Assembly (NCBI GenBank): GCA_017536965.1
Contig: JAFWCK010000126.1
Location: 709-64,708, forward strand
Source: Lachnospiraceae bacterium
Lineage (GTDB): Bacteria; Bacillota; Clostridia; Lachnospirales; Lachnospiraceae
Length of the DNA stretch: 64,000 bases
Direction: 5' to 3'
Under the pieces are notes generated by a model, which saw only the letters and a list, made by a program, of their open reading frames with translations, was not told the origin of the DNA and did no database searches. Below are positions 29,106 to 46,100 of the stretch, in pieces (the stretch's first letter is position 1; every line of letters begins with the position of its first letter). The position numbers and the translations under genes are program-made.

Positions 29106-30320
29106 CTACCGATATAAAAACAGGGTCAGCAGCAGATAGATCACCAGCAGACTGCTAAGGATAATGATCTGTTTTCCTTTATGTCCTTTTAGCAGACCAA
29201 TAAATTCGCGCACTGCTGCATTTGGCCAGAAGTACCATTTTGTAGGGGCGCCCATGCCTACTGCCGGGAGTTTTACCCTTCTAGCATAAAGTCCGCTGCG
29301 GAAAACATGATAATTCGTAGTGGAAAATGCGGTCTTTCCATTCGGGTTGGTCTTCTGAATGATCTCCTTTGAAAAAGTCATATTCTCAAAGGTATTCGTG
29401 GATCGGTCTTCTTCTATGATCTGTTTTTCCGGGATGCCCTGTGACATCAGATACTGTTTCATGCATGCACTTTCTGATATTCTTTCATCAGATCCCTGTC
29501 CGCCAGACGTAATAAAGATCAGTTCTTTGCCCGTCTCCTTTTTTTGCTTCCGGTAAAAAGCAATTGCACGGTCGCACCGTCCTTTCAGGAGCGGCGTCGG
29601 CGTTCCATCCTTCCGAATACTGCAGCCTAAAATGATCAGAAAATCTTTGTCCTTTGCAGGATCGTGAAGCGCCGCGATCAGATCTGCTATGATCGTCCCG
29701 ATCATCATGCATTCCAGGTACAAATAGATTCCCGCAAACAGGTTGAAAATAATCTCATGAGCACGGATCTGAGCAATGCTCCCGGACAGGTTTGCAAAGC
29801 GGTCAAAAAGAACTATAACCGCCTCACCCGCTAGAAGAATAACTGACAGCAGAATTCCAAGGACATTGACAAACCGCCGTCCTTCATGCCGGATCAACGA
29901 GATATTGGATATACATAATGCGATAGAAAAAAACAGAATAAACGGAGAAGAAATCAGCATATAATTTTTAGCTGAATCAAGCAGGCCATGCAGCATCCCC
30001 TCGACAGAATAAACTGATGGAAACAACGCCATTCGGACGGTCAAAATAATAAGGGTTGTACAGATAGAAATAATAAACAGCGCAAATCCCATATAGTAAA
30101 TCGTATTATAAGAATACGGATTATACTTGAGCTGCTTAAAAAAAGTAATGATCAATTCTGCCAGAACCGCCAGAAAGAAAAGGGATAGACTTCCGCAGAT
30201 ATAAACTGCGTTTTGCTCAGTCCCAAATATTACAAAAACGACCACGAGCCCAACCAGAACAGCCAACCAGATCAGAATATTATAAAGAGTTGGTTTCTTT
30301 TTCGGAGTATCTACATTCAT
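29106..30320 (-). CDS. Membrane protein with C-terminal YdcF/DUF218 (ElyC/SanA-like) domain
   Basis: N-terminal TM helices; LIILGCSIRKDGTPTPLLKGRCDRA, ITSGGQG, STNTFENM. Confidence 0.7.
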   Translation of the reverse strand: MNVDTPKKKPTLYNILIWLAVLVGLVVVFVIFGTEQNAVYICGSLSLFFLAVLAELIITFFKQLKYNPYSYNTIYYMGFALFIISICTTLIILTVRMALFPSVYSVEGMLHGLLDSAKNYMLISSPFILFFSIALCISNISLIRHEGRRFVNVLGILLSVILLAGEAVIVLFDRFANLSGSIAQIRAHEIIFNLFAGIYLYLECMMIGTIIADLIAALHDPAKDKDFLIILGCSIRKDGTPTPLLKGRCDRAIAFYRKQKKETGKELIFITSGGQGSDERISESACMKQYLMSQGIPEKQIIEEDRSTNTFENMTFSKEIIQKTNPNGKTAFSTTNYHVFRSGLYARRVKLPAVGMGAPTKWYFWPNAAVREFIGLLKGHKGKQIIILSSLLVIYLLLTLFLYR

Positions 30321-34147: not shown

Positions 34148-34150
34148 TTG

Positions 34151-34231
34151 TGCGAGTGACAGGACTTGAACCTGCACGGAAAGTCCACCAGATCCTAAGT
34201 CTGGCGCGTCTGCCAGTTCCGCCACACTCGC
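34151..34231 (-). tRNA. tRNA-Leu (anticodon TAG)
   Basis: The reverse complement folds as GCGAGTG acceptor, GCGGAACTGGCAGACGC D-arm, CCAGA-CTTAGGA-TCTGG anticodon arm, long variable arm, GCAGGTTCAAGTCCTGT T-arm, and CACTCGC-A. Confidence 0.9.
34209..34231. repeat. attL core (equals tRNA-Leu nt 1-23)
   Basis: Identical 23-mer at 41569-41591. Confidence 0.85.
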
Positions 34232-34257
34232 TTTGTAAAGCATTGTCGCTGTTTGTG

Positions 34258-34285
34258 ATTATATCTGAAAACCTTGATATTTCAA
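34258..34285 (-). promoter_or_regulatory. Sigma-A-like promoter inside the element, reading into tRNA-Leu(UAG)
   Basis: Minus strand TTGAAA (34285-34280) - 16 nt - TATAAT (34263-34258), about 27 nt upstream of the tRNA 5' end. Confidence 0.6.
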
Positions 34286-34346
34286 GCAAAATCACGCAAG
34301 TTCTTTTTCGTTTCTCTCTGTCTTGATTTATTACACTTTACCTTTT

Positions 34347-34389
34347 TACCTCAAAAATTGAGGTAAATTTTGAGGTAAAAATTGAGGTA
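34347..34389. repeat. Cluster of four TTGAGGTA octamers (one inverted), candidate integrase arm-type sites
   Basis: TACCTCAA 34347-34354; TTGAGGTA at 34359, 34370 and 34382. The same ATTGAGGTAAAAATTGAGGTA occurs at 41486-41506. Confidence 0.7.
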
Positions 34390-35562
34390 CTAGACCGCAA
34401 AGCTGATCTTGGACAGCTCTTCGTGCTTTGTATTCGGCATAACGTGTGCATATAAATCCATTGTCATTTTTAATGTGCTATGTCCTAACAGAGCTTTTAA
34501 GGTGTTCGGCTGCATACCCTGTTCAATACACCGGGTAGCGAATGTGTCCCGGAATCCATGTACTGTGAACGGAGCGAAGAATCCTTTTTCCTTTTCATTG
34601 ATCTTTGAGATTATATGCTCCAAACAGGCATCAACGGAATTGTAATGAGCCAGCGTTCCTTTTGTACTCGGAAAGACAATAGCGTTACTCGATCCGAACA
34701 GCATTGAATTTTTCTCTTTCTGATCCAGCAGAATCTTTTTGAGATCATCCGTCAGAGGGATAGTCCTGTTGCTGCTGCCTGTTTTCGGGGAATCTGACAA
34801 ACTATATTCTTTGTTTGAAACCTTTGAAACGGTTTTCCCGATGCGGATTTCATTTCTGTTGAAATCCACATCAAACCAAGTGAGGGCTGCTGCCTCTCCG
34901 ATCCGACACCCGGTAATAAGCAGAAATCGAAACAGATTATAGTAATAACTGCCCTCTGCGTTTTTCATCAGCAGCTTTGTTTCTTCAACCGTCAATGCTC
35001 TGTGATTTGTGAGAGCTGCTTTCGGCTTTTCAGATTTCAAAGTCTTTATGCCGTTGCATGGATTATAGTTGATGATCCTGTCATTAATTGCACTATTAAG
35101 AATCTGCTTGAGCAATCTTGTCACCCGGTTGATTGTGTCAGCCGTGAGGGTGATCTTTTCTCCGTTCTTGTCCGTTGCAAGTTCACCTTTCTTGTTCTTG
35201 CGATACTCTTTCTTCATGGCTGTTTGCATTTGCAGCACATCCATTTTTGAAATAGTGACAATCTGCCGTTTTCCTAAATACTTTTCAAGGTGTTGCCAAG
35301 ATTTCTTATAGCTGTATATTGTAGAGGTCTTAACCTCTTTCGCCTGTTCCTCAATCCAAAAGGAATAGTATTTTTCCAGCGTGATCTTGTGATTGTCAAT
35401 GTGCATACGATTCTTTAAGCGTTCCAGCAACTCGTCTTTTTTCTCTTCACATTCTGTCTGTGTATGTCCGTATACGAAATGCCGGACACCCTCAAAAGTA
35501 AAGGCTAATCTGTATAGCTGCTTTCCTCGATCGTAATAGAATCCTTTAGGTAATCTTTTCAT
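34390..35562 (-). CDS. int: Tyrosine recombinase (phage-type integrase)
   Basis: 390 aa; C-terminal catalytic blocks GCRIGEAAAL (Arg), HGFRDTFATR (H-x-x-R), LGHSTLKMTMDLYAHV (His...Tyr). Confidence 0.9.
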   Translation of the reverse strand: MKRLPKGFYYDRGKQLYRLAFTFEGVRHFVYGHTQTECEEKKDELLERLKNRMHIDNHKITLEKYYSFWIEEQAKEVKTSTIYSYKKSWQHLEKYLGKRQIVTISKMDVLQMQTAMKKEYRKNKKGELATDKNGEKITLTADTINRVTRLLKQILNSAINDRIINYNPCNGIKTLKSEKPKAALTNHRALTVEETKLLMKNAEGSYYYNLFRFLLITGCRIGEAAALTWFDVDFNRNEIRIGKTVSKVSNKEYSLSDSPKTGSSNRTIPLTDDLKKILLDQKEKNSMLFGSSNAIVFPSTKGTLAHYNSVDACLEHIISKINEKEKGFFAPFTVHGFRDTFATRCIEQGMQPNTLKALLGHSTLKMTMDLYAHVMPNTKHEELSKISFAV

Positions 35563-35676
35563 ATCTGCTACCCCCTTTGCTATGCGGATAGCAGAAACGT
35601 AATAACCACGATTCGGATTATATACTTTTTTTCTGTTATCTGCAAGTATTATCTTTTATTTTTGTTTGTGTTGTGG

Positions 35677-35939
35677 TATAATATTTTATTTTTCTTTATT
35701 ATGAAATTTCCTTTTGAAAGCCCCTAATTCGCCATTACAGGGCTTTTAGGGTCTTTGTGAAGGTTTTATTGTTTTTGGATTAATTGTCTGAAATCGCTTG
35801 CAATACGGCTGTAATTTGATAAGATAAAGACGGAAACACCGTTTCCAGCTGGCAAGTCTCTGACCCCGGCAACATCGTTTGGTCGGTGGGCGGTGTTTCG
35901 CTGACGGTTTTAGGCTACCCCCTTTGACCGTCTTTTTTT
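35677..35939 (+). ncRNA. Candidate about 250-nt non-coding transcript (extended -10 promoter to intrinsic terminator) between int and the upstream ORF
   Basis: TGGTATAAT at 35674-35682. Hairpins AAAGCCC...GGGCTTT and GAAACACCG...CGGTGTTTC. Terminator GACGGT-N18-ACCGTC plus T7 (35903-35939). No ORF longer than 8 codons. Confidence 0.4.
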
Positions 35940-35954
35940 ATGATCCGGCAGCAG

Positions 35955-36251
35955 TTATTTGATCTGCTGCCGTTCGTTTGCCTCAATGCCATAATCCCTT
36001 TTCATGGCTACTTTCCAGAGTTCATACTCAAGGGCTGCTATTGCTCTTGCTGCTGCCTCGGGTGTTTTAGCTCTGATTGTGTATTTCTCGTCACCAATCT
36101 CTGAATATGTCTCAAGTTCCAGCGTGATAGACACGGCATTTTCTTTTTTGCTCTTTCCGCTTGCAATACCGCCTTTTCGTCCCATTTCTGAAAGCTGTTC
36201 TTTCGTCCGCTGGCTGTTCGGAATCAGATTTTTTAAACTGTTCGGATTCAT
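35955..36251 (-). CDS. Hypothetical protein with N-terminal basic KGG-type segment (NPNSLKNL...GRKGGIASGKSKKE)
   Basis: ORF track with an AGGGA RBS; the N-terminal motif is seen in many phage/plasmid small proteins (recollection only). Confidence 0.5.
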   Translation of the reverse strand: MNPNSLKNLIPNSQRTKEQLSEMGRKGGIASGKSKKENAVSITLELETYSEIGDEKYTIRAKTPEAAARAIAALEYELWKVAMKRDYGIEANERQQIK

Positions 36252-36352
36252 ATTTCCCTTTCTGCTTCTTTATTCTCTCGTGCGTGCGTGCGTGAAAGCA
36301 TCCTTTAACTCTTTGAATCGGGGTGAATCGGGCTTTGAATTGCTTGCCGTTT

Positions 36353-36748
36353 TTAGGGGTCGGAAATCTTGCATATTGCTTTTTCAATATTATTCTTGAT
36401 CAACTGCAATCTATGTAGCTCCGTCCCGGGTGGAATGTCCCCGGCAACAATCGACATATCCTTTTTTATTTGTGGCAGCAGCTCCCGATCCCCTGTCATA
36501 AGCCCGATACACTCTACAGCTTTCAACAAAAGTACCTTTGTCTCTTTCCCTTGCTGTATGCCTTTTACAAGCTCCGTTCTGCACTCCCCAGCTCTTTTGA
36601 TATTCTCTTGGTATTCTTTATAGGCTTTCCGTATCTGCTGCCGTTCTGCCTGTTCCGCAAACAAGGAATTATCCGGCAAGCTCTCCGGCAGCTTATTTGA
36701 TCTGCTGCCGGGAGCAATCTTTTCAAGGGCTGTGAAATCTATCTGCAT
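36353..36748 (-). CDS. Hypothetical protein
   Basis: ORF track; AAGAGG RBS; the start overlaps the stop of the helicase gene. Confidence 0.5.
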   Translation of the reverse strand: MQIDFTALEKIAPGSRSNKLPESLPDNSLFAEQAERQQIRKAYKEYQENIKRAGECRTELVKGIQQGKETKVLLLKAVECIGLMTGDRELLPQIKKDMSIVAGDIPPGTELHRLQLIKNNIEKAICKISDP

Positions 36749-37926
36749 CGGTCAGCCTCTTTAAAATAATTAAACCTCGGATAGTACTGATACTTGATCC
36801 GGTCTCCTGTTCTGCCGTTTCTGTTTTTCAAAATAACCGCCTCGATTTCCCTAGGGTCTTTGCTCTTTGCCTCGGTAGGATCAAAATCAGCTTCACCAAT
36901 TCCGGCAAGGTCAAGCCCGATTACTACATCCGATCCATACTCAAGGCTGCCGGATTCTTTGAAACCGCTGAAATCAGCTTTCGTTTTATATCCGGCTCTG
37001 TTGAAACTGCTGATTGCAATTACAGGGCTTTTAAAGTCTCTGCTGATCCGCTTCAGTTCCAATACCGCCTTATCAATATTCTGCTTGTCGCTTGCCTTAA
37101 TATCGTAAGGGGCTAAAATCTGCACATAGTCAACTACCACAACCGGGATATTACCTAGAATTCTTGTGTGCCTTTCAACCGCCTCTCTGATCTGATTAAC
37201 CCCTATATCTCCTATCCCCTCATAAATGAAAATGTGTTCTGCGTATGTGCCGTACTCCTTTATAGCCGATTTGATCAACTGCCGTTCCTGTTCGGAATAA
37301 TTCTTATATCGTGATCCGTCTGTGATCCCTCTTGCTGTTTTTGCGTTATCCATTCCGGCTTTGAGCATTGTTAATCTCGAAACAGATTTTGAGATTAAGT
37401 CCTCTTTCGGCATTTCCATGGCAAATATGATCACATCATTTCCCTGTGCTGCGATCTGATCTGCCATCTGCATGATTAGCGTTGTCTTTCCCAGCGAAGT
37501 AATTGCCCCCACAACATACAGACCGCTATACAATCCACCGTCCAGCACTTGATCAAGTGTCGGAAATCCCGATCTGATCACCGGGGAATTCATTGAAGCA
37601 GCTATACCGTCAACAAACTCTTGTAAATATCCGGCAGCAGATTCTTTTTGCAACTGCTGCCGTTCTTCCTCAATCGTTTTCGCCTCGGTCTTTTCAACGT
37701 ACTCTTTCAAACTATTCTTTGTTTCCTCAATGCTTTGCCCTTTGCGTTCCGCATCAGTCAATATTTCAATCACGCTTGCCCCGGTCAGCCCTGTTCGGCT
37801 GGCATAGTCTGTGATTTCTTCCAATGTCAGCCCGAAGTGATCAATACCATAGGCTATAATTGCCCCGGTACTCGTCAAATCGTTCTGTTCTTCCCTCAAT
37901 ACCTCTTGTACTTCTTTTAGTTCCAT
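36739..37926 (-). CDS. DnaB-like replicative helicase (RecA-fold C-terminal domain with a unique N-terminus)
   Basis: Walker A GAITSLGKTT, Walker B VVVDYVQIL, SRDFKSPVIAISSFNR. Confidence 0.8.
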   Translation of the reverse strand: MELKEVQEVLREEQNDLTSTGAIIAYGIDHFGLTLEEITDYASRTGLTGASVIEILTDAERKGQSIEETKNSLKEYVEKTEAKTIEEERQQLQKESAAGYLQEFVDGIAASMNSPVIRSGFPTLDQVLDGGLYSGLYVVGAITSLGKTTLIMQMADQIAAQGNDVIIFAMEMPKEDLISKSVSRLTMLKAGMDNAKTARGITDGSRYKNYSEQERQLIKSAIKEYGTYAEHIFIYEGIGDIGVNQIREAVERHTRILGNIPVVVVDYVQILAPYDIKASDKQNIDKAVLELKRISRDFKSPVIAISSFNRAGYKTKADFSGFKESGSLEYGSDVVIGLDLAGIGEADFDPTEAKSKDPREIEAVILKNRNGRTGDRIKYQYYPRFNYFKEADRCR

Positions 37927-38138
37927 TATTTCTCCTGTCTCATATTCCAGCGTTCAACAACTCTCCGGCTTACCACATCAAGAGTATTAATCGGATTGTT
38001 GCCAACAGCCAGCCAATCGTTATTAATGCACCGGGTACACTTCACTTTGACAATGTGTCGGGGTTTTCCCTCGCTGTATTCTTCGATCAGCTCTGCCGGG
38101 CTGCCACAATATTTACAATTCGATAATTTCATATTCAA
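37926..38138 (-). CDS. Lar-family-like zinc-ribbon protein (restriction alleviation-like)
   Basis: 70 aa; CKYCG...CTRC plus C-terminal VVERWNMR, resembling the Lar CxxC...CxxC...AWNRR pattern. Confidence 0.5.
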   Translation of the reverse strand: MNMKLSNCKYCGSPAELIEEYSEGKPRHIVKVKCTRCINNDWLAVGNNPINTLDVVSRRVVERWNMRQEK

Positions 38139-38210
38139 CGATATTTCCTCATTTGTCTTTCTGATCCATCAAAGGGGAATCGCCTCTCTCAAAAGAGCGA
38201 TTTCCCCCTT

Positions 38211-38262
38211 TCTAGAAATTTCTAAAAATTTCTAAAAATTAAGAAAAATTTCTAACCTCGGA
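38211..38262. repeat. AT-rich tract with four AAATTTCTA(A/G) repeats, candidate DNA-unwinding element
   Basis: TCTAGAAATTTCTAAAAATTTCTAAAAATTAAGAAAAATTTCTAACC. Confidence 0.55.
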
Positions 38263-38301
38263 AACCCTAGGGGGACAAGGCTTTGCAGAATCGCCACCCG
38301 A

Positions 38302-38383
38302 AGTAATACGGAGCTTTAGCGGTAGTAATACGGAGCTTTAGCGGTAGTAATACGGAGCTTTAGCGGTAGTAATACGGAGCTTT
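38302..38383. repeat. Iterons: 22-bp direct repeat AGTAATACGGAGCTTTAGCGGT x 3.7
   Basis: Perfect copies at 38302, 38324 and 38346, plus a 16-bp partial copy at 38368 that abuts the Rep-like stop codon. Confidence 0.9.
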
Positions 38384-39259
38384 TTACTCTCCCGGCATCT
38401 CAAAAATCACAAGTCTTTCAGCAAAGGAATGATAGTTTTCGCCCGGGTCAATCGGCTTGTCATATCTCCAGTCATTGATCACCCCGGCTCTTTTGATCAC
38501 ATCTAAATTTGCTTCAAAAGGTTTTCTGATCCTGTCTCGCCAACTGTCACGCTGTTTTAAAACGTTCTCGTAATCCGGCAAGCTGGACACATTGAGCAGC
38601 GTTCCCACCTTTAACCGATCCGATGATCCTTTACCTCTGTTGCCCTTGTTCCCGGAATGGGTGATGATCTTTGAGGCTATAGCATAGGCTGTTTGATTCT
38701 TTCCGCTGATCCGCATCAGCTCTTTTGGAATTTTCACTAAAGGCTTTTTATGAAGATACTCCGCAAAAGTCTGTCCGAATCTCATTGTGATCCTGTTCCG
38801 TTTAACCTCTCCTACACTATCCAGCAGATTGACACTCTGCCACCTTTTGCCGTCATCCCACGAAAGCTGGACAGCCTGTAAGGTTTTCAAGTCCTGTCTA
38901 ATCTGCTCGTGTGCGTGATCTCTCCGGCTCTTTGTGCTTATGTCATATCCCACAAGGCAGCAGTACTCATCAAAAGGAATCGTGACAGGGCGGTTGATCG
39001 TCTTGCTTTTTCCGAATCCGTTTTGAATCGTGAAAGCAGCAAGCCCGGCAATCAGCAGATTATTTGTCCCAACGCCGAGACCGCTTTTCAATCCGAATTT
39101 ATGCAACCCGAAATCCACTCCGAGCTTATTAATCCTAACTTCGCCTGTGACAGAATCGGCAGCAGCCCTTTTGCTAGTGACTGCTGCCATTGCATCAATA
39201 GGCTTTGCGTGATGAATGGTCAGCACTTCCGGCATTGTTCCGGGCTTTTCATTCTTCAT
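38384..39259 (-). CDS. Putative replication initiator (Rep-like, winged-helix type)
   Basis: ORF 38384..39355. I prefer ATG 39259 (MKNEKPG), which overlaps the Xis-like stop by 11 nt. Adjacent to the iterons. Similarity to Rep proteins is only pattern-level (NQTAYAIASKIITH). Confidence 0.45.
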   Translation of the reverse strand: MKNEKPGTMPEVLTIHHAKPIDAMAAVTSKRAAADSVTGEVRINKLGVDFGLHKFGLKSGLGVGTNNLLIAGLAAFTIQNGFGKSKTINRPVTIPFDEYCCLVGYDISTKSRRDHAHEQIRQDLKTLQAVQLSWDDGKRWQSVNLLDSVGEVKRNRITMRFGQTFAEYLHKKPLVKIPKELMRISGKNQTAYAIASKIITHSGNKGNRGKGSSDRLKVGTLLNVSSLPDYENVLKQRDSWRDRIRKPFEANLDVIKRAGVINDWRYDKPIDPGENYHSFAERLVIFEMPGE

Positions 39260-39470
39260 CTGCTGCCTCAAGCTGTACGGTATCGTTTTCGGAAAAGTAC
39301 TCGTCAATTTTCCGAAGATCATATACACATCTTTTCCCAATCCGTTTTTCCGCACCGATCTTTACGGCTGTTACTTTTGCTGTTTGAGTTCCTACTCCCA
39401 TATAATCGGCAGCAGCTCTCAAGTTCACAAAGCGTTTGTCATTGTTTGCGTCAACATTTCTAAATTTCAT
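39249..39470 (-). CDS. Excisionase/AlpA-like small HTH DNA-binding protein
   Basis: 73 aa; FVNLRAAADYMGVGTQTAKV HTH; first gene of the leftward operon. Confidence 0.55.
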   Translation of the reverse strand: MKFRNVDANNDKRFVNLRAAADYMGVGTQTAKVTAVKIGAEKRIGKRCVYDLRKIDEYFSENDTVQLEAADEE

Positions 39471-39497
39471 TATTCTTTACCTCGTTTTTTTATATTT

Positions 39498-39542
39498 TGA
39501 AGTACTTCATGTTGACAGAATACAGTCCATAAGGTGTATAAT
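39498..39542. promoter_or_regulatory. Divergent switch region: 12-bp palindrome TGAAGTACTTCA plus a rightward TTGACA / TGTATAAT promoter
   Basis: Palindrome 39498-39509; TTGACA 39512-39517; TGTATAAT 39535-39542. Confidence 0.55.
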
Positions 39543-39587
39543 CAATTTGTCAATAGATTAAATTTTAGTGAGGTATATAAAAGAAAT

Positions 39588-40268
39588 ATGTCTAATTCAT
39601 TTTACACATTCACGCAAGAAGAATTGAAAACGATCAGCAACAGATTACAAGCAAAAATGCAAGCTGCCGGAATATCGCAGCGACAGCTTGCGAATAAGAG
39701 CAAGGTCTCTCGTGCCAATATCAACGACATGATAAACGGACATTATTCTTCTGACGGTAGCAACGAGAAAGTGTTCCGCAATCACAAGCCGGAAACATAC
39801 AAAAAAATATGTGACGGTTTTGATATATTAGGCGAAGTATGCAGCATGGAATATCTACTCGGAGAGGTGAGGCAATCGACACACGATCTACAATTCATCT
39901 GTGATTACACCGGGCTATCAGAGGAAGCTGTGAGAAAACTGCACGAACAGAAATCAGACCCTCTAAATCTGCTTCAACTACAAGTTTTATCTACCGCTAT
40001 TGCAAAAACCGATCTGTCTGCTCGTATGGCTGATTATTGGCAGCTACAGCCAGCAAGCGAATCAGCTAATATAACATTGGAATACCGAGAAAAAAATATC
40101 ATCAATCACACCATTACTACCGGGGCAACAGAAAGCAAACATACTGATCCGAGTATCAGAATCAATGGGGTGGACATAGGCTTGCAGACCGTCAAAGAAG
40201 TTGTTCTAAAGGAAATCCAAAAAGAATTAGAGCTTATGATTAAAGAGGATCAGAAGAAACCTCGCTGA
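39588..40268 (+). CDS. XRE-family HTH regulator with an uncharacterised C-terminal domain of about 150 aa (candidate element repressor)
   Basis: ORF 39534..40268, but its first ATG overlaps the -10 box. ATG 39588 follows GTGAGGT. HTH ISQRQLANKSKVSRANINDMINGH. Confidence 0.65.
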   Translation: MSNSFYTFTQEELKTISNRLQAKMQAAGISQRQLANKSKVSRANINDMINGHYSSDGSNEKVFRNHKPETYKKICDGFDILGEVCSMEYLLGEVRQSTHDLQFICDYTGLSEEAVRKLHEQKSDPLNLLQLQVLSTAIAKTDLSARMADYWQLQPASESANITLEYREKNIINHTITTGATESKHTDPSIRINGVDIGLQTVKEVVLKEIQKELELMIKEDQKKPR

Positions 40269-40292
40269 TTATATTTGACATTTGTTCACCTT

Positions 40293-40380
40293 GATTTTCC
40301 TTGTAAAATTTTTTCGGGGTCGTGTTTTTTCTGAAAATATTTTTCGGGGGTAATTTTCCCTTGAAAAATTTTTTGAGGGT
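40293..40380. repeat. Three tandem direct repeats of about 29 bp (TTG-AAAAT-TTTTCGGGGT type)
   Basis: Units at 40293-40323, 40324-40351 and 40352-40380. Confidence 0.8.
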
Positions 40381-40634
40381 CAAGGTACCATGGCATGTTT
40401 TTTTGCCTGCCTCTCACGTGCAATATACTCTTCCCCTTTTCCTCGGGGGTTCCCTACCGTTTCTCTTTTTCCTTTTTGGAGCAGCTTCACAAGGTGTTAC
40501 CGGGGTTTCACATACTCCATTTAAGTAAAGCAAAGGTATATTTCAAATCATAAAAAGGAGACAACACAAAAAGACAAACAAGAACAACACCACAGACCAC
40601 CAACAATATAGATCTAGAATGATGTAAACAGTAT

Positions 40635-40675
40635 AAAAAAACAGTCTCTTTTTAAGAAAAAAGACTGCTTTTTCA
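40635..40675. terminator. Bidirectional intrinsic terminator inside the element
   Basis: CAGTCTCTTTTT-AAG-AAAAAAGACTG with an A-run before it and CTTTTT after it. Confidence 0.65.
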
Positions 40676-41049
40676 TATAAAACAGCTGCAAAAAAGGTCA
40701 AAAACGATGCAATTTAATGCTGATTTGTGTCTATTTTATTCTATTTTCATGGCTCCTACGAATCGGTTAATTGTGTTTGATACGGTTAAGTATGATAGAG
40801 AATCTTTCCCTGTTTCTGTAAATGTTGGACACGGTATAGTCGACAGCAAGTATCATATCTACGATATAACAGAAAGCATAAAAAATACCGCCGTCTTGGA
40901 GCGGGTCGGAGACTTGCGCTCTGATAGCGATATTTCTTTAAATATTTTTTATCACAAGCAGTAGAAAATAGCAAGCTTTCTCGTTCCTTCAATTCGACGG
41001 GCAAACAACTACAATGGTTAAATCATTTGCAAAAATCGTACGTTGCAAT

Positions 41050-41250
41050 TTACTGCTGATTTGTGTCTATTTTATTCTTGTTTTTTTCGTAGCTCCTGCC
41101 AGAATTGAAGCCGACTACAAAACCGTAATCGATCAGTCTGAACGGTGTCCCTTCTGCCAGAGAATAGATGGCGCTCATATCCTTCGCGGTCAGCATTCTC
41201 GATTCAGGTATTTTTGTTTCGTCAACGATCTTCTTCACGTTTCTATTCAT
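41050..41250 (-). CDS. Hypothetical small protein (66 aa)
   Basis: ORF track; the start overlaps the stop of the upstream 63-aa ORF by 8 nt. Confidence 0.45.
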   Translation of the reverse strand: MNRNVKKIVDETKIPESRMLTAKDMSAIYSLAEGTPFRLIDYGFVVGFNSGRSYEKNKNKIDTNQQ

Positions 41251-41434
41251 GGTCTACCTCTCCTGTGATCCATTGTCTCTGCTGCATTTCCTGTATTCCT
41301 GCTTTTATTCCGGCTTCGTCCTTTGCAATTATCAATATCTGCCCTGTAATCAGATCAACGTGAAACCGATTCTCTGCTCCGGCATCAATAACTGCTGTTA
41401 CATTCTCTCCCATGTTCTGAATCTTTTCAACCAT
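41243..41434 (-). CDS. Hypothetical small protein (63 aa)
   Basis: ORF track; strong AAAGGAG RBS 9 nt upstream of the ATG. Confidence 0.5.
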   Translation of the reverse strand: MVEKIQNMGENVTAVIDAGAENRFHVDLITGQILIIAKDEAGIKAGIQEMQQRQWITGEVDHE

Positions 41435-41568
41435 GTTCTTATTCTCCTTTCAGTATGCCTCGATCTGATAACTTTTTCAGACCCGATTGAGGTAAAAATT
41501 GAGGTAATTGTTTGAACAAGACATAAAAAATGCTGGAAACTCAAGGTCTCCAGCATTATTATTACGTT

Positions 41569-41591
41569 TCTGCCAGTTCCGCCACACTCGC
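41569..41591. repeat. attR core: orphan 5' fragment of tRNA-Leu(UAG)
   Basis: Identical to 34209-34231. Lies 4 nt downstream of the stop of the 41596..43041 gene. Sequence diverges from the tRNA after nt 23. Confidence 0.85.
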
Positions 41592-43143: not shown

Positions 43144-46100
43144 TTATTCAGTCCGCAGGGCGATCACCGGATCTTTTTTTGCAGCTTTTCTGGACGGGAT
43201 CAGACCTCCTATGATAGTGATCACTATACTGATCGTGATCAGGATCAGCGCACTTGTCCACGGCAGTTTTGCGTTCAACGACAGGTTATCCGTAAGCGCA
43301 TGTATGATCGAATTGATTGGAAGGATCAGCAGCAGAGACACTCCAACGCCTATGATTCCTGACAGACACCCGATAATAAACGTTTCCGCGTTAAACACCT
43401 GCGAGATATTTGCTTTGGATGCACCAAGTGCCCGCAAAACACCTATCTCTTTTGTCCTTTCCAGGACGGATATATTCGTAATGACGCCAATCATAATACA
43501 CGAGACGAAAAGGGAAACTGCCACAAAGCCGATCAGTACATAAGAAATTGCATTAATGATCGTTGTAATAGATGATGTAAGCAGCGCCACGTAGTCCGTA
43601 TAGATGATCTTGTCTTCCTCTTCTTTGCCTGCGTTATAATGTTCGATCGATGCAGATATTCCATCTTTCGCCTCAAAGCTATCTGCGTATATGCTGATAG
43701 ATGAAGGAGCGTCATAGCTGACCAGGCCAAACTGTTTCATGTTATCGTCATAAGTGGAACGGCCCATATATTCTTCGTAAATCCGCACCAGTGACTCTTC
43801 TTTAGCGAAATTATCAAGCCAATATTGTACGATCTGCGCCATATCTTCTTCATCCATCGAGAAGTCGATTCCGGAAGCAACCGACCCAAGATCCAGATTT
43901 ATATTCAGATTATCTCCAAAGTTAAAAGAATACGGAATCTGGTCTAATGGGAGCTTTTCAAGCTCCTCCCGCAGTTTTTCCCAGTCGATCCGCGGAAGCG
44001 TACTGGTTTCTTCCGTCGGTTCCTCTGAGGTAGGCTCTTCCGAGGTCGGTTCCTCCGAGGTCGGCTCCTCCGAGGTCGGCTCTTCTGAGGTCGGTTCCTC
44101 CGAGGTCGGCTCTTCTGAGGTCGGCTCTTCTGATGGAGCCTCTTTGGTGGTTTCATCCGGCGGAAGCGTCGGGATCTCAATCGGCACAATACCTTCTCCG
44201 GTTACTTCCTCTATTGCTCCGGCGACAGCACCTCTGGCGGACTCGATTGCGGAATAGACCGCCTGATTCAGAGCCTGACGAATGGCATATTCAATATTGG
44301 CGCCAAGAACAGTACCTAATTCCCCCATTTGCGTCGTCATCAAGGCTTCCATACCGCCTTCATAATCCAGCATCATAACAAGTGAGAAGAAAGAGGCCTT
44401 ATCCGTCATTCCCAGATCATTGACATACTGTCTTGCCTTTTTTGCTTTATCAGAATCCTTCAGATCACTTTCTTCAAATTTTTGACCAGTCAGTACATTT
44501 ATATCCGGTGTTTCTTCCTGAGCTTTGATCACTTCACTTTCCGAACCATGATTGATCAGATAGTCCGTCAGCAAAGTGGTATACCCGATCGTCGCATTGA
44601 TTCCTTGTATGTCAGAGCCCTCTTTTCTTTTCACGAGACCAACGATCTTCAATTGAACACCCTTATCAGCTGCTGTTTTCAGTTTTGCTTTATCATCGCC
44701 TATATAAGAAAAGGTTCCGTTTTCCCGTTTTTCATAATAATCAGAAGCAGAAATCAGATAGAAAGTGCGGCCCATCAGCTGCTCATAACTAAAACGAACC
44801 TCTTGTGCTTCTTCCTGCTTTTTAATTTTATCGATCGCATTTTTGTATTGTTTTTCTGTCAGATAGCCCAACTGATACAATGTGCCGGAAAATAAAGTGT
44901 TGCTCCGATTCAATACCAAAACTACCTCATCATAAGCATCCGGCCAGCCGCCATAGACCACATCATAATTATCCTTGATCATCGGGCTGACGACATCATG
45001 ATTGGTGCCCGCAGGCATCTCGGCAAAGTTTTCTGCATGATTCGTCCCGGATCCTCCTGTCAGTGTGGACATATTGCTCATCATCAGGGAACGGACTTCC
45101 TCCAGGTTTCCAAAGATACTGTTCTCGGAAGAAAACTCACTTCTGGTATCCGCATCCGTGTCGACCAGTTTCCCGTCTTTGTCATAGGTGTACACTTTAA
45201 AATCCACATTGTAAGAATAAACGACCCCGTGCTCACCAATATATTGATGGATCTCGCTCTCCGGATCATCCAGATATTTCTTAAAGTCTGTCAGATTGTT
45301 TTCTTTGATACTGGCATTAACAGATGTGTTCAGTTCCAGATCCTGATAGTTGGCATAAACCATATCTTTTTCTCGTTCCGGTTTCTCTGCCGTTGTATCT
45401 TCCCGAATGTTCTGCGGATTTGGTCCCATCAAAGCAGACATATCAAAACTGGTTGACGTAATGGATATAGGATAACTGGTCAAAGTATCCTTCTGAATCT
45501 GATCAATATAATTGTTCACACCGGTTGAAAGAGAAAGAATCAGAGCAATACCAATGATGCCGATCGCCCCGGCAAAAGCGGTCAGAATGGTCCTTCCTTT
45601 TTTTGTTCTCAAATTGTGGAAGCTTAATACAAGAGAGGTCAGGAATGACATGCCGGACAGGCGTTTCCGTTTTGTCCCCGTTTCCGTATGTTCTTCTGTT
45701 TTGGCCAAAAGATCCGCCTGCACCTGTTCATCCGTATATGGCATACTATCATCGGTGATCTTGCCATCCTTCAGCTTCACGATCCGGGAAGCATATTCAT
45801 CAGCCAGGTCCGGATTATGTGTCACCATCACGACCAACCGGTCATCTGCCACTTTTTTCAAAAGGTCCATAACCTGAATACTGGTTTCCGTATCCAATGC
45901 GCCAGTCGGTTCATCAGCAAGCAGAATGTCCGGATCGTTTACAAGCGCCCTGGCCAGTGCAACACGCTGCATCTGCCCTCCGGAAAGCTGATTCGGTTTT
46001 TTATGGATCTGATCCGCCAGTCCAACATCTTCCAACGCTTTCATGGCACGCTCTTTCCGCTCTTTCGGAGAAATGCCTCCAATCGTCAGTGCCAGCTCTA

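Follow-up and report, generated by a model that had tools for sequence, protein, structure and literature searches.

Why does a 7.36-kb mobile element carry 15 exact copies of a single octamer where about 1.4 are expected? The copies lie at 34772-39415 of the window, by which we mean the whole 64-kb stretch of DNA analyzed, and read GGCAGCAG on the plus strand (6 copies) or CTGCTGCC (9 copies). Chi is a signal that stops a DNA-end-degrading enzyme and starts repair. From the sequence comparisons below, we estimate a probability of about 60% that GGCAGCAG is a Chi-like signal of the Lachnospiraceae, read by a helicase-nuclease of the AddAB type, and that the element has gathered copies of it so that its DNA ends are protected or recombined.

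An integrative replicon dense in one octamer

All 15 clustered copies fall inside an element (34232-41591) inserted in tRNA-Leu. Integrative and self-replicating, it has genes for a tyrosine integrase, a DnaB-like helicase, an XRE repressor, and a Rep that binds iterons; its host is an uncultured gut or rumen bacterium of the family Lachnospiraceae. The integration target, tRNA-Leu(UAG) (34150-34231, minus strand; ARAGORN, and Rfam tRNA at 57 bits), supplies its 5′ 23 nt as the left att core, and this 23-bp sequence (TCTGCCAGTTCCGCCACACTCGC, attL, 34209-34231) is repeated exactly and directly at the right end of the element (attR, 41569-41591). A circular-form contig, L006, contains the junction of both element ends, and three metagenome contigs (L147, L148, and L151) all break exactly at attR. 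Three arm-type repeats of AAAAATTGAGGT (34353-34389, located by tandem repeat finder) are probable integrase arm sites and are matched at 41487-41506, giving 20 bp common to both ends.

The minus-strand operon begins with a small helix-turn-helix protein that resembles an excisionase or regulator (DUF6462 by family matches, 39249-39470), followed by the Rep initiator (38384-39355; Rep3_N winged helix, Pfam 5e-5), which the gene caller gives as 291 aa from an ATG at 39259. Iterons of 22 bp (3.7 copies of AGTAATACGGAGCTTTAGCGGT with 100% matches by tandem repeat finder, 38302-38383) are the probable replication origin, and an A+T-rich array of 10-bp repeats adjoins them at 38209-38255. Also on the minus strand are a 70-aa zinc-ribbon protein (37926-38138), a 395-aa DnaB-like replicative helicase lacking a primase domain (36739-37926; Pfam DnaB_C 4e-35, PHROG 19), two genes with no assigned function (orf131, 36353-36748, without a family match; orf98, 35955-36251, with a weak match to PHROG 2412), and the 390-aa tyrosine integrase (34390-35562; Pfam Phage_integrase, 1e-27). 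The XRE-family repressor-like gene (39534-40268, plus strand; Pfam HTH_3, PHROG repressors) diverges from the operon, and with it begins a region free of the motif. This continues through a right arm (40269-41568) that is mosaic relative to L006, carries 30-bp repeats at 40294-40380, and holds small open reading frames at 40707-40964 (plus), 41050-41250 (minus), and 41243-41434 (minus).

A recount placed every one of the 15 copies at the position and strand given in an earlier sequence-only reading, which had found about four more outside the cluster; there are seven, every one on the minus strand (4092, 6605, 15180, 17897, 21347, 42972, and 55161). The window contains 22 copies in all; 100 shuffles that preserved dinucleotide composition gave 1.43 ± 1.15, and not one reached 22. 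Density is 3.2 per kb in 34772-39415, 2.0 per kb across the whole element, and 0.12 to 0.13 per kb in the host flanks, which are 16 to 26 times sparser than the element. Copies fall into 5 to 6 clusters along the element, and their orientation shows no polarity (P = 0.19), which counts against the Chi reading. No copy occurs in the 2.2-kb right arm, the gap between the integrase gene and orf98, the origin, the att arms, or the divergent promoter region (39471-39533); were loading uniform, an empty right arm by itself would have a P of ∼0.005. The copy-free right arm, integrase-orf98 gap, and origin also speak against Chi, because selection should act most easily on noncoding DNA.

The enriched unit is an exact word

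Among the dispersed 8-mers of the element, GGCAGCAG ranks first (P = 6e-14). In seven control chunks of host DNA, the leading 8-mers had P values of just 3e-6 to 1e-4. It is the octamer, not CAGCAG, that is enriched (17-fold versus 2-fold): G follows GGCAGCA in 15 of 15 cases and precedes GCAGCAG in 15 of 16. The ratio of exact copies to one-mismatch variants is 15:6 in the whole element and 15:2 in its motif-rich span, versus 7:95 in host DNA.

This exactness bears on the earlier suggestion of an EcoP15I-like Type III substrate (CAGCAG in head-to-head orientation) or, similarly, a methylation-based regulatory motif. The octamer does contain CAGCAG, its close pairs are all head-to-head, and the zinc-ribbon protein weakly resembles the restriction alleviation protein Lar. 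However, it is the whole octamer that is enriched, the resemblance to Lar falls short of the threshold (E = 0.003), and Pfam identifies no methyltransferase in the element. A mobile element would be expected to shed restriction substrates, not to build them up, and we regard a restriction-modification role as very improbable.

The word is under selection as DNA

The sequence-only reading had proposed selection on DNA rather than on protein, and this is borne out by synonymous shuffling, the sparse flanks, and the excess of exact copies over near-misses. The excess is a DNA-level, exact-word signal. As that reading had noted, the octamer is translated differently across genes, and three consecutive genes have GAACGGCAGCAG in common. 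The translations are RQQ, GS[RS], xAA, LLP, and CC, with copies on both strands and in all three frames. Eight of the 15 copies are single, as exact as the paired ones. They lie in the integrase gene at codons 262 (GSS; 34772-34779, minus) and 223 (EAAA; 34887-34894, minus); in orf98 at codon 65 (EAAA; 36050-36057, minus); in orf131 at codons 90 (antisense, LLP; 36474-36481, plus) and 36 (RQQ; 36635-36642, minus); in rep at codon 131 (antisense, CC; 38956-38963, plus); where the 3′ end of the DUF6462 gene overlaps the 5′ end of rep, directly upstream of the Rep ATG (39260-39267, minus); and in the DUF6462 gene at codon 19 (antisense, AAAD; 39408-39415, plus).

The excess might be suspected of arising from biased codon or dipeptide usage (Ala-Ala, Gln-Gln) in the genes of the element: only one of the element's copies lies outside coding DNA, the octamer overlaps common codons (GCA GCA, CAG CAG), and codon-level composition predicts ∼4 to 5 host copies per 56 kb. 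Shuffling synonymous codons within each gene, however, averaged 2.2 copies over 2,000 trials and never gave more than 8, against the 15 observed. Together with the spread over three frames and both strands and the depletion of one-mismatch variants, this refutes composition as the source to near certainty.

Head-to-head pairs

The four inverted pairs described earlier exist, one with a truncated left arm. Pair 1 (CCGGCAGCAG-TTATTTGAT-CTGCTGCCG, 35945-35972) spans the orf98 stop codon and forms a predicted DNA hairpin of −11.2/−11.7 kcal/mol (z of ∼−5.5 to −6.2). Pair 2 (CCGGCAGC-TTATTTGAT-CTGCTGCCGG, 36685-36711), with the truncated arm CCGGCAGC, has the loop TTATTTGAT in common with pair 1 and reaches −14.2 kcal/mol, its stem extending to 12 bp. 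Pair 3 (CCGGCAGCAG-N13-CTGCTGCCG, 37631-37662; −10.9 kcal/mol) lies within the helicase gene and pair 4 (GGCAGCAG-N15-CTGCTGCC, 39158-39188; −8.7/−10.3 kcal/mol) within rep. Every close pair in the element is head-to-head, and the excess is real (3 full pairs within 40 bp versus 0.28 expected, P = 0.0008 to 0.0017). It is specific to the window element, being absent from the replicons L155, L158, L161, and L168, and it counts against the Chi reading because Chi does not predict pairs.

The hairpins themselves could be the functional units, serving as single-strand origin or priming signals, recombination sites, or determinants of operon mRNA processing or stability, with single copies as decayed or incidental half-palindromes. 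All four are stable (−8.7 to −14.2 kcal/mol, z from −2.5 to −6.2), pairs 1 and 2 have a whole 27-bp module, loop included, in common despite different reading frames, the pair 2 stem runs past the motif, and in L006 the pair 3 right arm is mutated to CTGTTGCC, which on the plus strand replaces G-C by G-T. Yet the unpaired majority of copies is equally exact, none of the four pairs scores as an intrinsic terminator or matches Rfam, and pair 3 is dispensable in L006. Stem-loop function would also fail to explain why the word by itself is enriched on Butyrivibrio plasmids and why relatives without pairs are similarly loaded, and we consider it improbable.

Alternatively, the octamer may be bound by an element protein (Rep, the XRE repressor, the DUF6462 protein, or the product of orf98 or orf131), with inverted pairs as dimer operators and single copies as half-sites acting in copy-number control, handcuffing, silencing, or partition. 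Initiators of the Rep3 family are known to recognize parts of their iterons when these form inverted repeats. The enriched pairs, the clustering, and the occurrence of the motif only in the operon these regulators would govern are consistent with such binding, as is the iteron's CGGTAGTA, two transitions from the motif core CGGCAGCA, although this 6/8 likeness has an estimated chance probability of ∼0.1. Against it, the word is strictly exact, unlike typical degenerate operator families, pair spacers differ (9, 11, 13, and 15 bp), and pair 3 is broken in L006. The copy-free zones include all regulatory intergenic regions, with the divergent promoter, origin, and att arms among them. Rep has just two homologues among 5.8 billion proteins, whereas the octamer is enriched on Butyrivibrio megaplasmids, unrelated replicons not known to share the element's proteins. 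An operator role is therefore unlikely, although it deserves some weight.

The octamer follows the host lineage

On Butyrivibrio proteoclasticus pCY360, 28 octamers (13 plus, 15 minus) occur in 150 kb versus 5.9 expected (P = 4e-11), ranking third among all 8-mers behind only ribosome-binding-site words; B. hungatei pNP144 has 8 versus 2.0 expected (P = 0.001). The octamer is absent from a fourth Lachnospiraceae replicon, pCY186. It thus goes with the host lineage, not with the window element. The lack of replichore-type strand polarity on pCY360 counts against the Chi reading.

The 56.6 kb of host flank show no over-representation (7 copies versus 4.4 expected, rank 882 of 1,356 under a strand-specific third-order Markov model). 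Including one copy in contig L162, all 8 host copies are on the minus strand, which is G-rich, gene-rich, and presumably leading, but this 8:0 skew is not significant against a baseline of ∼75% for GCAGCAG. Both results weigh against Chi. The flank density of 0.13 per kb is nonetheless close to that quoted for Chi in Staphylococcus aureus (335 per 2.82 Mb).

A Lachnospiraceae word read by some other host maintenance, defense-evasion, or self-marking system and mimicked by some elements would also fit enrichment on three unrelated replicon types (the window element, pCY360, and pNP144), absence from pCY186, and exact recognition, and the data point to no particular reader protein. Such a word would require a new system, whereas helicase-related replicons of Staphylococcus and Streptococcus load known Chi specifically, and the flanking copies are like Chi in their density and in their bias to one strand. 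Signals of the DNA-uptake type would be dense in the chromosome (∼1 per kb), unlike the flank density here, which is not above expectation, and polar words of the FtsK/SpoIIIE type would be senseless on both strands of a 7-kb circle. We judge a non-Chi lineage signal unlikely to much the same degree as an operator.

Helicase-related replicons load known Chi

The helicase served as a marker for finding the replicon family, yielding 3,950 relatives. Small replicons with a related DnaB-like helicase load the known Chi of their host as the top or near-top word on both strands (Chi assignments from PMC5959072, Table 3, and bioRxiv 10.1101/2021.07.08.451572). GAAGCGG ranks first of 4,357 words in the Staphylococcus epidermidis replicon (L155; 6 plus, 6 minus; P = 1e-13) and first in that of S. 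haemolyticus (L158; 7 plus, 6 minus; P = 1e-14). Two other plasmids of the same two strains have no copy in 27 and 24 kb; exact to one-mismatch ratios are 12:10 and 13:8 in the loaded replicons versus 0:14 and 0:13 in controls. GCGCGTG occurs 7 times (3 plus, 4 minus) in Streptococcus thermophilus pSMQ-316 and pSMQ308, at ranks 1 and 2, and 4 plus, 3 minus in Streptococcus sp. p29887, at rank 9. Two relatives whose hosts are not named carry GAAG[A/C]GG 19 times in 6.3 kb (L010) and GAGCGGG 19 plus, 20 minus versus 4.5 expected (L168; P = 1e-20). These words contain AGCGG, the Bacillus subtilis core.

The earlier note had listed protein binding, packaging, recombination, Chi-like, and modification signals without distinguishing among them; the Chi-like option is favored because related replicons load known Chi and Lachnospiraceae plasmids carry the octamer. 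Three differences count against it. The window element combines Rep3 with a stand-alone helicase, whereas the loaded plasmids have a primase-helicase fusion; helicase identity is 48 to 54% to the named-host plasmids (∼62 to 64% to L010 and L168); and some relatives, L160 of B. cereus and also L167, show no loading. We found no Chi reported for Clostridia in the literature.

Between the window element and the 89%-identical L006, one site has been lost and another gained elsewhere, which favors maintenance of copy number over position. Positional conservation is marginal (P = 0.05 to 0.13), a further point against Chi.

A possible benefit to the element

If AddAB recognizes GGCAGCAG, the element would be expected to benefit as follows. 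Once excised, it may at times be linear double-stranded DNA: a fork may collapse, replication may be of the sigma or concatemeric type, or transduction may bring the element into a new cell. AddAB would then load at each end of the linear DNA and degrade it. At a correctly oriented Chi, AddAB would instead produce a RecA-loaded 3′ tail, and the molecule could be repaired or circularized rather than destroyed. Because the molecule is small and can spare little DNA, either end can be attacked, and each Chi is recognized only sometimes, many copies in both orientations (6 and 9) would be needed. By a published rule, Chi is over-represented in phages that lack a recombination module (PMC3784561; PMC12315714), with P1 as a further instance. 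The window element, in whose proteins Pfam and PHROG detect no recombinase and no inhibitor of a RecBCD/AddAB nuclease, fits this rule. Speculatively, a dense Chi load might also mean that fewer CRISPR spacers are acquired, or fewer Argonaute guides produced, from the element.

Carrier element

A 23-bp direct repeat corresponding to the 5′ end of tRNA-Leu(UAG) is present at 34209-34231 and 41569-41591 and bounds a 7.36-kb element with TTGAGGTA-type arm repeats inside both of its ends. On the minus strand, Pfam and PHROGs searches place a tyrosine integrase (34390-35562), orf98 (35955-36251) and orf131 (36353-36748), neither with an assigned function, a DnaB-like helicase (36739-37926), a 70-aa zinc-ribbon protein (37926-38138), a Rep3-type initiator (38384-39355), and a DUF6462 HTH protein (39249-39470). 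A divergent XRE repressor-like gene lies on the plus strand (39534-40268, also Pfam and PHROGs), an array of 3.7 22-bp iterons occupies 38302-38383, and a 1.3-kb arm with small ORFs (40269-41568) forms the right end. No recombinase, nuclease inhibitor, methyltransferase, packaging, or mobilization genes were recognized in the element by Pfam and PHROGs, which left orf98, orf131, and the right-arm ORFs unannotated.

The 23-bp att repeats, the tyrosine integrase, and the attP junction found in an 89%-identical relative (L006) identify an integrative element at a tRNA gene; because L006, from another assembly, carries the joined ends, it is the excised circle of a related element. Several metagenome contigs (L145 to L150) hold the element at the same site with 99.9% identity, and three contigs stop precisely at the right repeat. 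The host, an uncultured Lachnospiraceae bacterium, belongs to a species known solely from fragmented metagenome contigs. The helicase belongs to a very large family carried on 5- to 14-kb contigs; the Rep protein is almost unique, with just two homologues, and no close integrase relatives were found in viral contigs, phages, or plasmids. L006 is the one usefully diverged relative of the element. The size (∼7 kb), tRNA-associated integration, integrase, divergent XRE repressor with a small HTH gene, Rep with iterons, helicase, and excised circular form all recall SaPI/PICI-like islands; unlike those, the element has no recognized packaging, capsid-redirection, or mobilization genes, and its integrase sits at the operon end, far from the repressor.

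A near-consensus sigma-70 promoter (TTGAAA-16-TATAAT, 11/12) lies at 34258-34285 on the minus strand, inside the left end of the element and upstream (∼27 bp) of the 5′ end of tRNA-Leu; since the 5′ portion of this tRNA was exchanged on integration, the element may now provide its promoter. Among L145, L146, L149, and L150, which are otherwise 99.9% identical, the distance from rep to the gene after it changes by 44 bp, the length of two 22-bp iterons, and iteron copy number thus apparently varies in the population. The 390-bp noncoding gap between the integrase gene and orf98 (35563-35954) has no Rfam match; an extended −10-like TGGTATAAT near 35676-35684 and a hairpin with a T7 run near 35897-35932 (GACGGT...ACCGTC TTTTTTT), both on the plus strand, could delimit a small plus-strand transcript of ∼240 nt.

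An exact octamer under selection at the DNA level

A pattern search returned every coordinate that the sequence-only reading had listed for an octamer cluster at 34772-39415, namely, six copies of GGCAGCAG on the plus strand and nine of its reverse complement CTGCTGCC. The rest of the window holds seven further copies rather than the "about four" counted by eye, every one on the minus strand, and the 22 copies in the whole window compare with 1.43 ± 1.15 in dinucleotide-preserving shuffles. The octamer is 17-fold denser in the element than in host DNA, CAGCAG merely 2-fold, and the flanking G is nearly constant in the element (after GGCAGCA in 15/15 cases, before GCAGCAG in 15/16); the repeated unit is therefore the octamer and not CAGCAG. 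Its 8-nt core is invariant, with weak preferences at the flanking bases. These counts bear on the suggestion that head-to-head CAGCAG pairs mark a substrate for a Type III restriction enzyme of the EcoP15I type. Beyond the modest enrichment of CAGCAG itself, mobile elements would be expected to avoid such pairs, and the accumulation seen here is the opposite, so this explanation is not supported.

The motif falls in all three reading frames and both coding orientations, and GAACGGCAGCAG is common to three consecutive genes, both as originally described. When synonymous codons were shuffled within each gene (2,000 trials), the mean was 2.2 copies and the maximum 8, compared to 15 observed, which rejects a composition artifact and bears out the general claim of selection at the DNA level. 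In an unbiased scan the octamer was the top dispersed 8-mer of the element (P = 6e-14); the best 8-mers in seven host chunks of element size reached 3e-6 to 1e-4. Exact copies and one-mismatch variants stand at 15:6 in the element, 15:2 in the motif-rich span, and 7:95 in host DNA, an all-or-none exactness suggesting that the reader is an enzyme or a base-pairing partner and not a typical degenerate operator family.

Copies are scattered through 4.6 kb of coding sequence; the promoter regions, the origin, the right arm (2.2 kb), and the gap between the integrase gene and orf98 have none. In comparison with L006, the right arm has a mosaic structure and may have been acquired recently. Copy orientation showed no significant polarity, whether taken along the whole element or relative to the origin or the motif-free arm (P = 0.19). 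Positional conservation against L006 is marginal (1 change in 56 motif positions versus 4.65 expected, P = 0.05; permutation P = 0.13) and carries no weight in our reading; one site was lost and another gained elsewhere. The copy at 39260 lies directly between a GAGG Shine-Dalgarno-like sequence and the gene-caller ATG of Rep (291-aa version), within 39257-39267, and overlaps the Rep translation-initiation region. We also note that GGCAGCAG falls within the conserved 16S rRNA region of the 341F primer, an overlap that we judged to be coincidence.

Short words repeated in either orientation on small replicons that encode Rep and a helicase are also known as the iterons and initiator operators of Rep3-family plasmids (pPS10, F, R6K) and from satellite phage P4, whose dispersed octamer TGTTCACC occurs at ori and crr; P4, like our element, integrates in a tRNA-Leu gene. 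The octamer of our element could be the binding site of an element-encoded protein, a reading favored by its clustering, its head-to-head pairs, and a 6-of-8 resemblance to the iteron (CGGTAGTA versus CGGCAGCA in the motif), the last being a partial match with a chance probability of ∼0.1 and hence a lead. We consider it unlikely, as the motif is strictly exact, the regulatory regions have no copies, and the same word is enriched on Butyrivibrio plasmids (see below). In pPS10, F, R6K, and P4, the sites are somewhat degenerate and form regularly spaced clusters in noncoding DNA of the origin or control region; the octamer of our element is exact, dispersed in coding DNA, and present on unrelated plasmids. 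An iteron or Rep operator cluster was rejected, since the 22-bp × 3.7 array represents the true iterons and the octamer avoids origin and promoters.

Some replicons with related helicases carry the Chi of their hosts

Distant metagenome relatives lack GGCAGCAG, and some have a dense word of their own on both strands: two contigs carry GAAG[A/C]GG 19 times in 6.3 kb (L010) and GAGCGGG 39 times (L168; 19+/20−, 4.5 expected, P = 1e-20). The same helicase family is present on complete small replicons of named hosts, whose Chi assignments are published (PMC5959072 Table 3; bioRxiv 10.1101/2021.07.08.451572). GAAGCGG, the staphylococcal Chi, ranks first of 4,357 7-mers on a Staphylococcus epidermidis replicon (L155; 6+/6−, P = 1e-13) and first on one from S. 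haemolyticus (L158; 7+/6−, P = 1e-14). The streptococcal Chi GCGCGTG ranks first on S. thermophilus pSMQ-316 (3+/4−, P = 1.9e-5), second on pSMQ308 of the same species (3+/4−, P = 2.4e-5), and ninth on Streptococcus sp. p29887 (4+/3−, P = 4e-4). Other plasmids of both staphylococcal strains, with different replication systems, contain 0 GAAGCGG in 27 and 24 kb. Exact Chi and near misses stand at 12:10 and 13:8 in L155 and L158 versus 0:14 and 0:13 in these controls, a pattern resembling that of our element. Such loading is not universal in the helicase family; a Bacillus cereus plasmid and the phage-like contig L167 have nothing comparable.

Lactobacillus delbrueckii pLL1212 (L161), which encodes a related helicase, carries GCTGAAG 20 times, and a 52-kb plasmid of Anaerotruncus colihominis (L159), also with a related helicase, carries GCTTGAC 40 times and CGTCAAGC 22 times. 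The dominant words of L161, L159, L168/L169, and L010 may be Chi candidates for their hosts. L155 and L158 are circular records that lack plasmid Rep typing and encode DUF1474, a primase-helicase, a small HTH protein, and a site-specific integrase; they resemble excised elements of an island or satellite type more than they do ordinary plasmids.

The octamer on Lachnospiraceae plasmids and in host DNA

If the octamer is a word of the host lineage, it should occur on unrelated Lachnospiraceae replicons, and two Butyrivibrio plasmids show that it does. In the first 50 kb of pCY360, a megaplasmid of B. proteoclasticus B316, GGCAGCAG is the top strand-specific 8-mer (9 copies versus 0.91 expected); in 150 kb it occurs 28 times (13+/15−, 5.9 expected, P = 4e-11) and ranks third of all 8-mers, after two Shine-Dalgarno-derived words. 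B. hungatei pNP144 has 8 copies (4+/4−) versus 2.0 expected (P = 0.001). The same word is thus selected in unrelated replicons of the host lineage. pCY186, a conjugative plasmid of B316, has 0 copies in 50 kb versus 2.2 expected, and this split into loaded and bare plasmids echoes the staphylococcal controls as well as published Chi-rich and Chi-free phages and plasmids. What decides the interpretation of GGCAGCAG is the comparison with the helicase relatives and their known host Chi; a Lachnospiraceae-specific signal other than Chi is an improbable alternative for the word shared by these plasmids.

Host DNA available to us comprised 56.6 kb of flank and an extra contig of 4.9 kb. All eight host copies, seven in the flank and one in the extra contig, fall on the minus strand, the one that is G-rich, gene-rich, and presumably leading (origin and terminus are outside the view); this skew is not significant against a ∼75% baseline for GCAGCAG. 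Density is 0.12 to 0.13 per kb (∼1 per 8 kb), close to that of Chi in S. aureus (335 per 2.82 Mb; bioRxiv 10.1101/2021.07.08.451572). A strand-specific Markov model of the 56.6-kb flank, with low power, gives 7 minus-strand copies versus 4.4 expected (rank 882 of 1,356); the observed/expected ratio of E. coli Chi is itself only about 2.3 (PMC3784561). The host data are compatible with Chi and do not establish it. The top skewed host 8-mer, GAGGTCGG, derives from a 15-bp tandem coding repeat (GAGGTCGG[C/T]TC[C/T]TC...) at 44030-44135, within a gene for a 1,088-aa ABC-transporter/FtsX protein.

The octamer also shares features with DNA uptake sequences (Neisseria DUS, Haemophilus USS), which are exact short words found on both strands, in coding DNA, in several frames, and as inverted hairpin pairs. 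Uptake sequences saturate the host chromosome, at ∼1 per kb. This candidate was rejected, as the host flanks are not above expectation and the mobile element is saturated instead; we are aware of no similar system of uptake signals among Lachnospiraceae.

A candidate Chi of Lachnospiraceae

Of the options raised by the sequence-only reading (a protein-binding, packaging, recombination, Chi-like, or modification-related motif), the Chi-like one gained support from the helicase relatives and the Butyrivibrio plasmids and the Type III one lost ground. We put the probability that GGCAGCAG is a Chi-like word of Lachnospiraceae AddAB at roughly 60%, which makes it the best supported of these options, and the most economical reading is that the element, like its helicase-family relatives, accumulated this word on both strands. 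GGCAGCAG is short (within 5 to 8 nt), exact, and nonpalindromic, as is Chi; in the Staphylococcus and Streptococcus relatives the loaded word is the known Chi, and in our element it is a putative one. It matches the Chi words defined in Firmicutes (AGCGG in B. subtilis, GAAGCGG in S. aureus, GCGCGTG in L. lactis and streptococci) in being 5 to 8 nt, exact, nonpalindromic, and purine- or G-rich, and its host-flank copies lie on the presumed leading strand at ∼1 per 8 kb, with the nonsignificant skew given above; unlike those words, it is a candidate from sequence alone, and it resembles no known Chi.

E. coli Chi is recognized ∼30 to 40% of the time (quoted in PMC5959072). Because each Chi would be recognized at only that rate, a 7-kb molecule attacked from either end would need ∼6 to 9 correctly oriented copies per direction for reliable rescue. 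This predicted need is close to the 6 and 9 copies observed here and the 6 to 7 per strand in the staphylococcal replicons.

Phages without a recombination module of their own over-represent host Chi (PMC3784561, PMC12315714), and phage P1 carries 50 Chi sites (bioRxiv 10.1101/2021.07.08.451572); Chi loading of small replicons would extend this principle. Like the Chi-rich phages (the lambdoid LLS with its relatives, Zheng et al. 2025, PMC12315714; Rec-minus lambdoids, Bobay et al. 2013, PMC3784561; P1), our element has no recombinase or nuclease inhibitor detectable by Pfam or PHROGs and carries a short, exact, asymmetric word far above composition, which in the checkable relatives is the host Chi. 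Unlike those phages, the hosts are Gram positive, with AddAB/RexAB instead of RecBCD, and the Chi identity of GGCAGCAG is inferred. The replicons are also smaller (6 to 12 kb, integrative or plasmid, versus 40 to 95 kb) and denser in Chi (1 to 3 per kb, 10 to 25 times host density, versus ∼0.2 to 0.5 per kb and roughly host density in lambdoids), and both orientations are equally represented, compared to 20/23 one way in phage LLS (PMC12315714).

Whether small helicase-encoding Firmicute replicons form a "Chi-saturated" class, carrying the host AddAB/RexAB word on both strands at 10 to 25 times chromosomal density, with GGCAGCAG as the first proposed Chi of Lachnospiraceae and Clostridia, we regard as evenly balanced. 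In such a class the most over-represented word of a replicon could be read as the Chi of its host. GAGCGGG, GAAG[A/C]GG, and GCTGAAG would then be Chi candidates for other hosts, the top dispersed word of such replicons would offer cheap computational Chi discovery in uncultured bacteria, and ∼4,000 related contigs could yield a Chi atlas for them. Small Gram-positive replicons would also exceed described phages in Chi density, on both strands, and so dense a load would imply either dependence on or evasion of host AddAB/RecA. Chi governs double-strand break repair, the treatment of incoming DNA, and the sites of CRISPR spacer pick-up. Among cultured species it is known for only a few, and for no member of the Clostridia, and the main value of the analysis is a concrete, testable candidate, GGCAGCAG, for a family abundant in gut and rumen, together with a possible route to Chi discovery from small replicons. 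In practice, genetic work on Lachnospiraceae could benefit from vectors or linear DNA equipped with the host Chi.

Head-to-head pairs

Head-to-head motif pairs occur at 35945-35972, 36685-36711, 37631-37662, and 39158-39188 and are predicted to form stable hairpins. Close full pairs number 3 in the element versus 0.28 expected (P = 0.0008), and this enrichment is seen in our element alone and not in L155, L158, L161, or L168. The third pair is broken in L006. A terminator scan reported none of the four, and we rejected them as intrinsic terminators; the first pair is followed on the mRNA strand by an A-run, not a T-run, and neither promoter scan nor Rfam returned anything for the hairpins. In the viral contig collection, CGGCAGCAG-N5-20-CTGCTGCCG has at least 120 matches; among the matches listed, none comes near the density of the element, and most are lone hairpins in high-GC phages. 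The pairs would be a further adaptation peculiar to our element, one for which the Chi reading does not account.

The first two pairs share a 27-bp module that includes the loop and lies in different reading frames. This palindromic module of ∼27 bp, CCGGCAGC[AG]TTATTTGATCTGCTGCCG, has two copies separated by 740 bp (35945-35975 and 36685-36711); the first copy spans the stop codon of orf98 (ERQQIK*) and the second occupies codons 12 to 21 of orf131 (GSRSNKLP). The module looks like a duplicated DNA unit and not a protein similarity. On pCY360, one tight head-to-head pair, GGCAGCAG-N6-CTGCTGCC, is found at 341535-341556 (∼30136-30157 of the segment L173), with the plasmid's cas12a gene ∼1.1 kb away.
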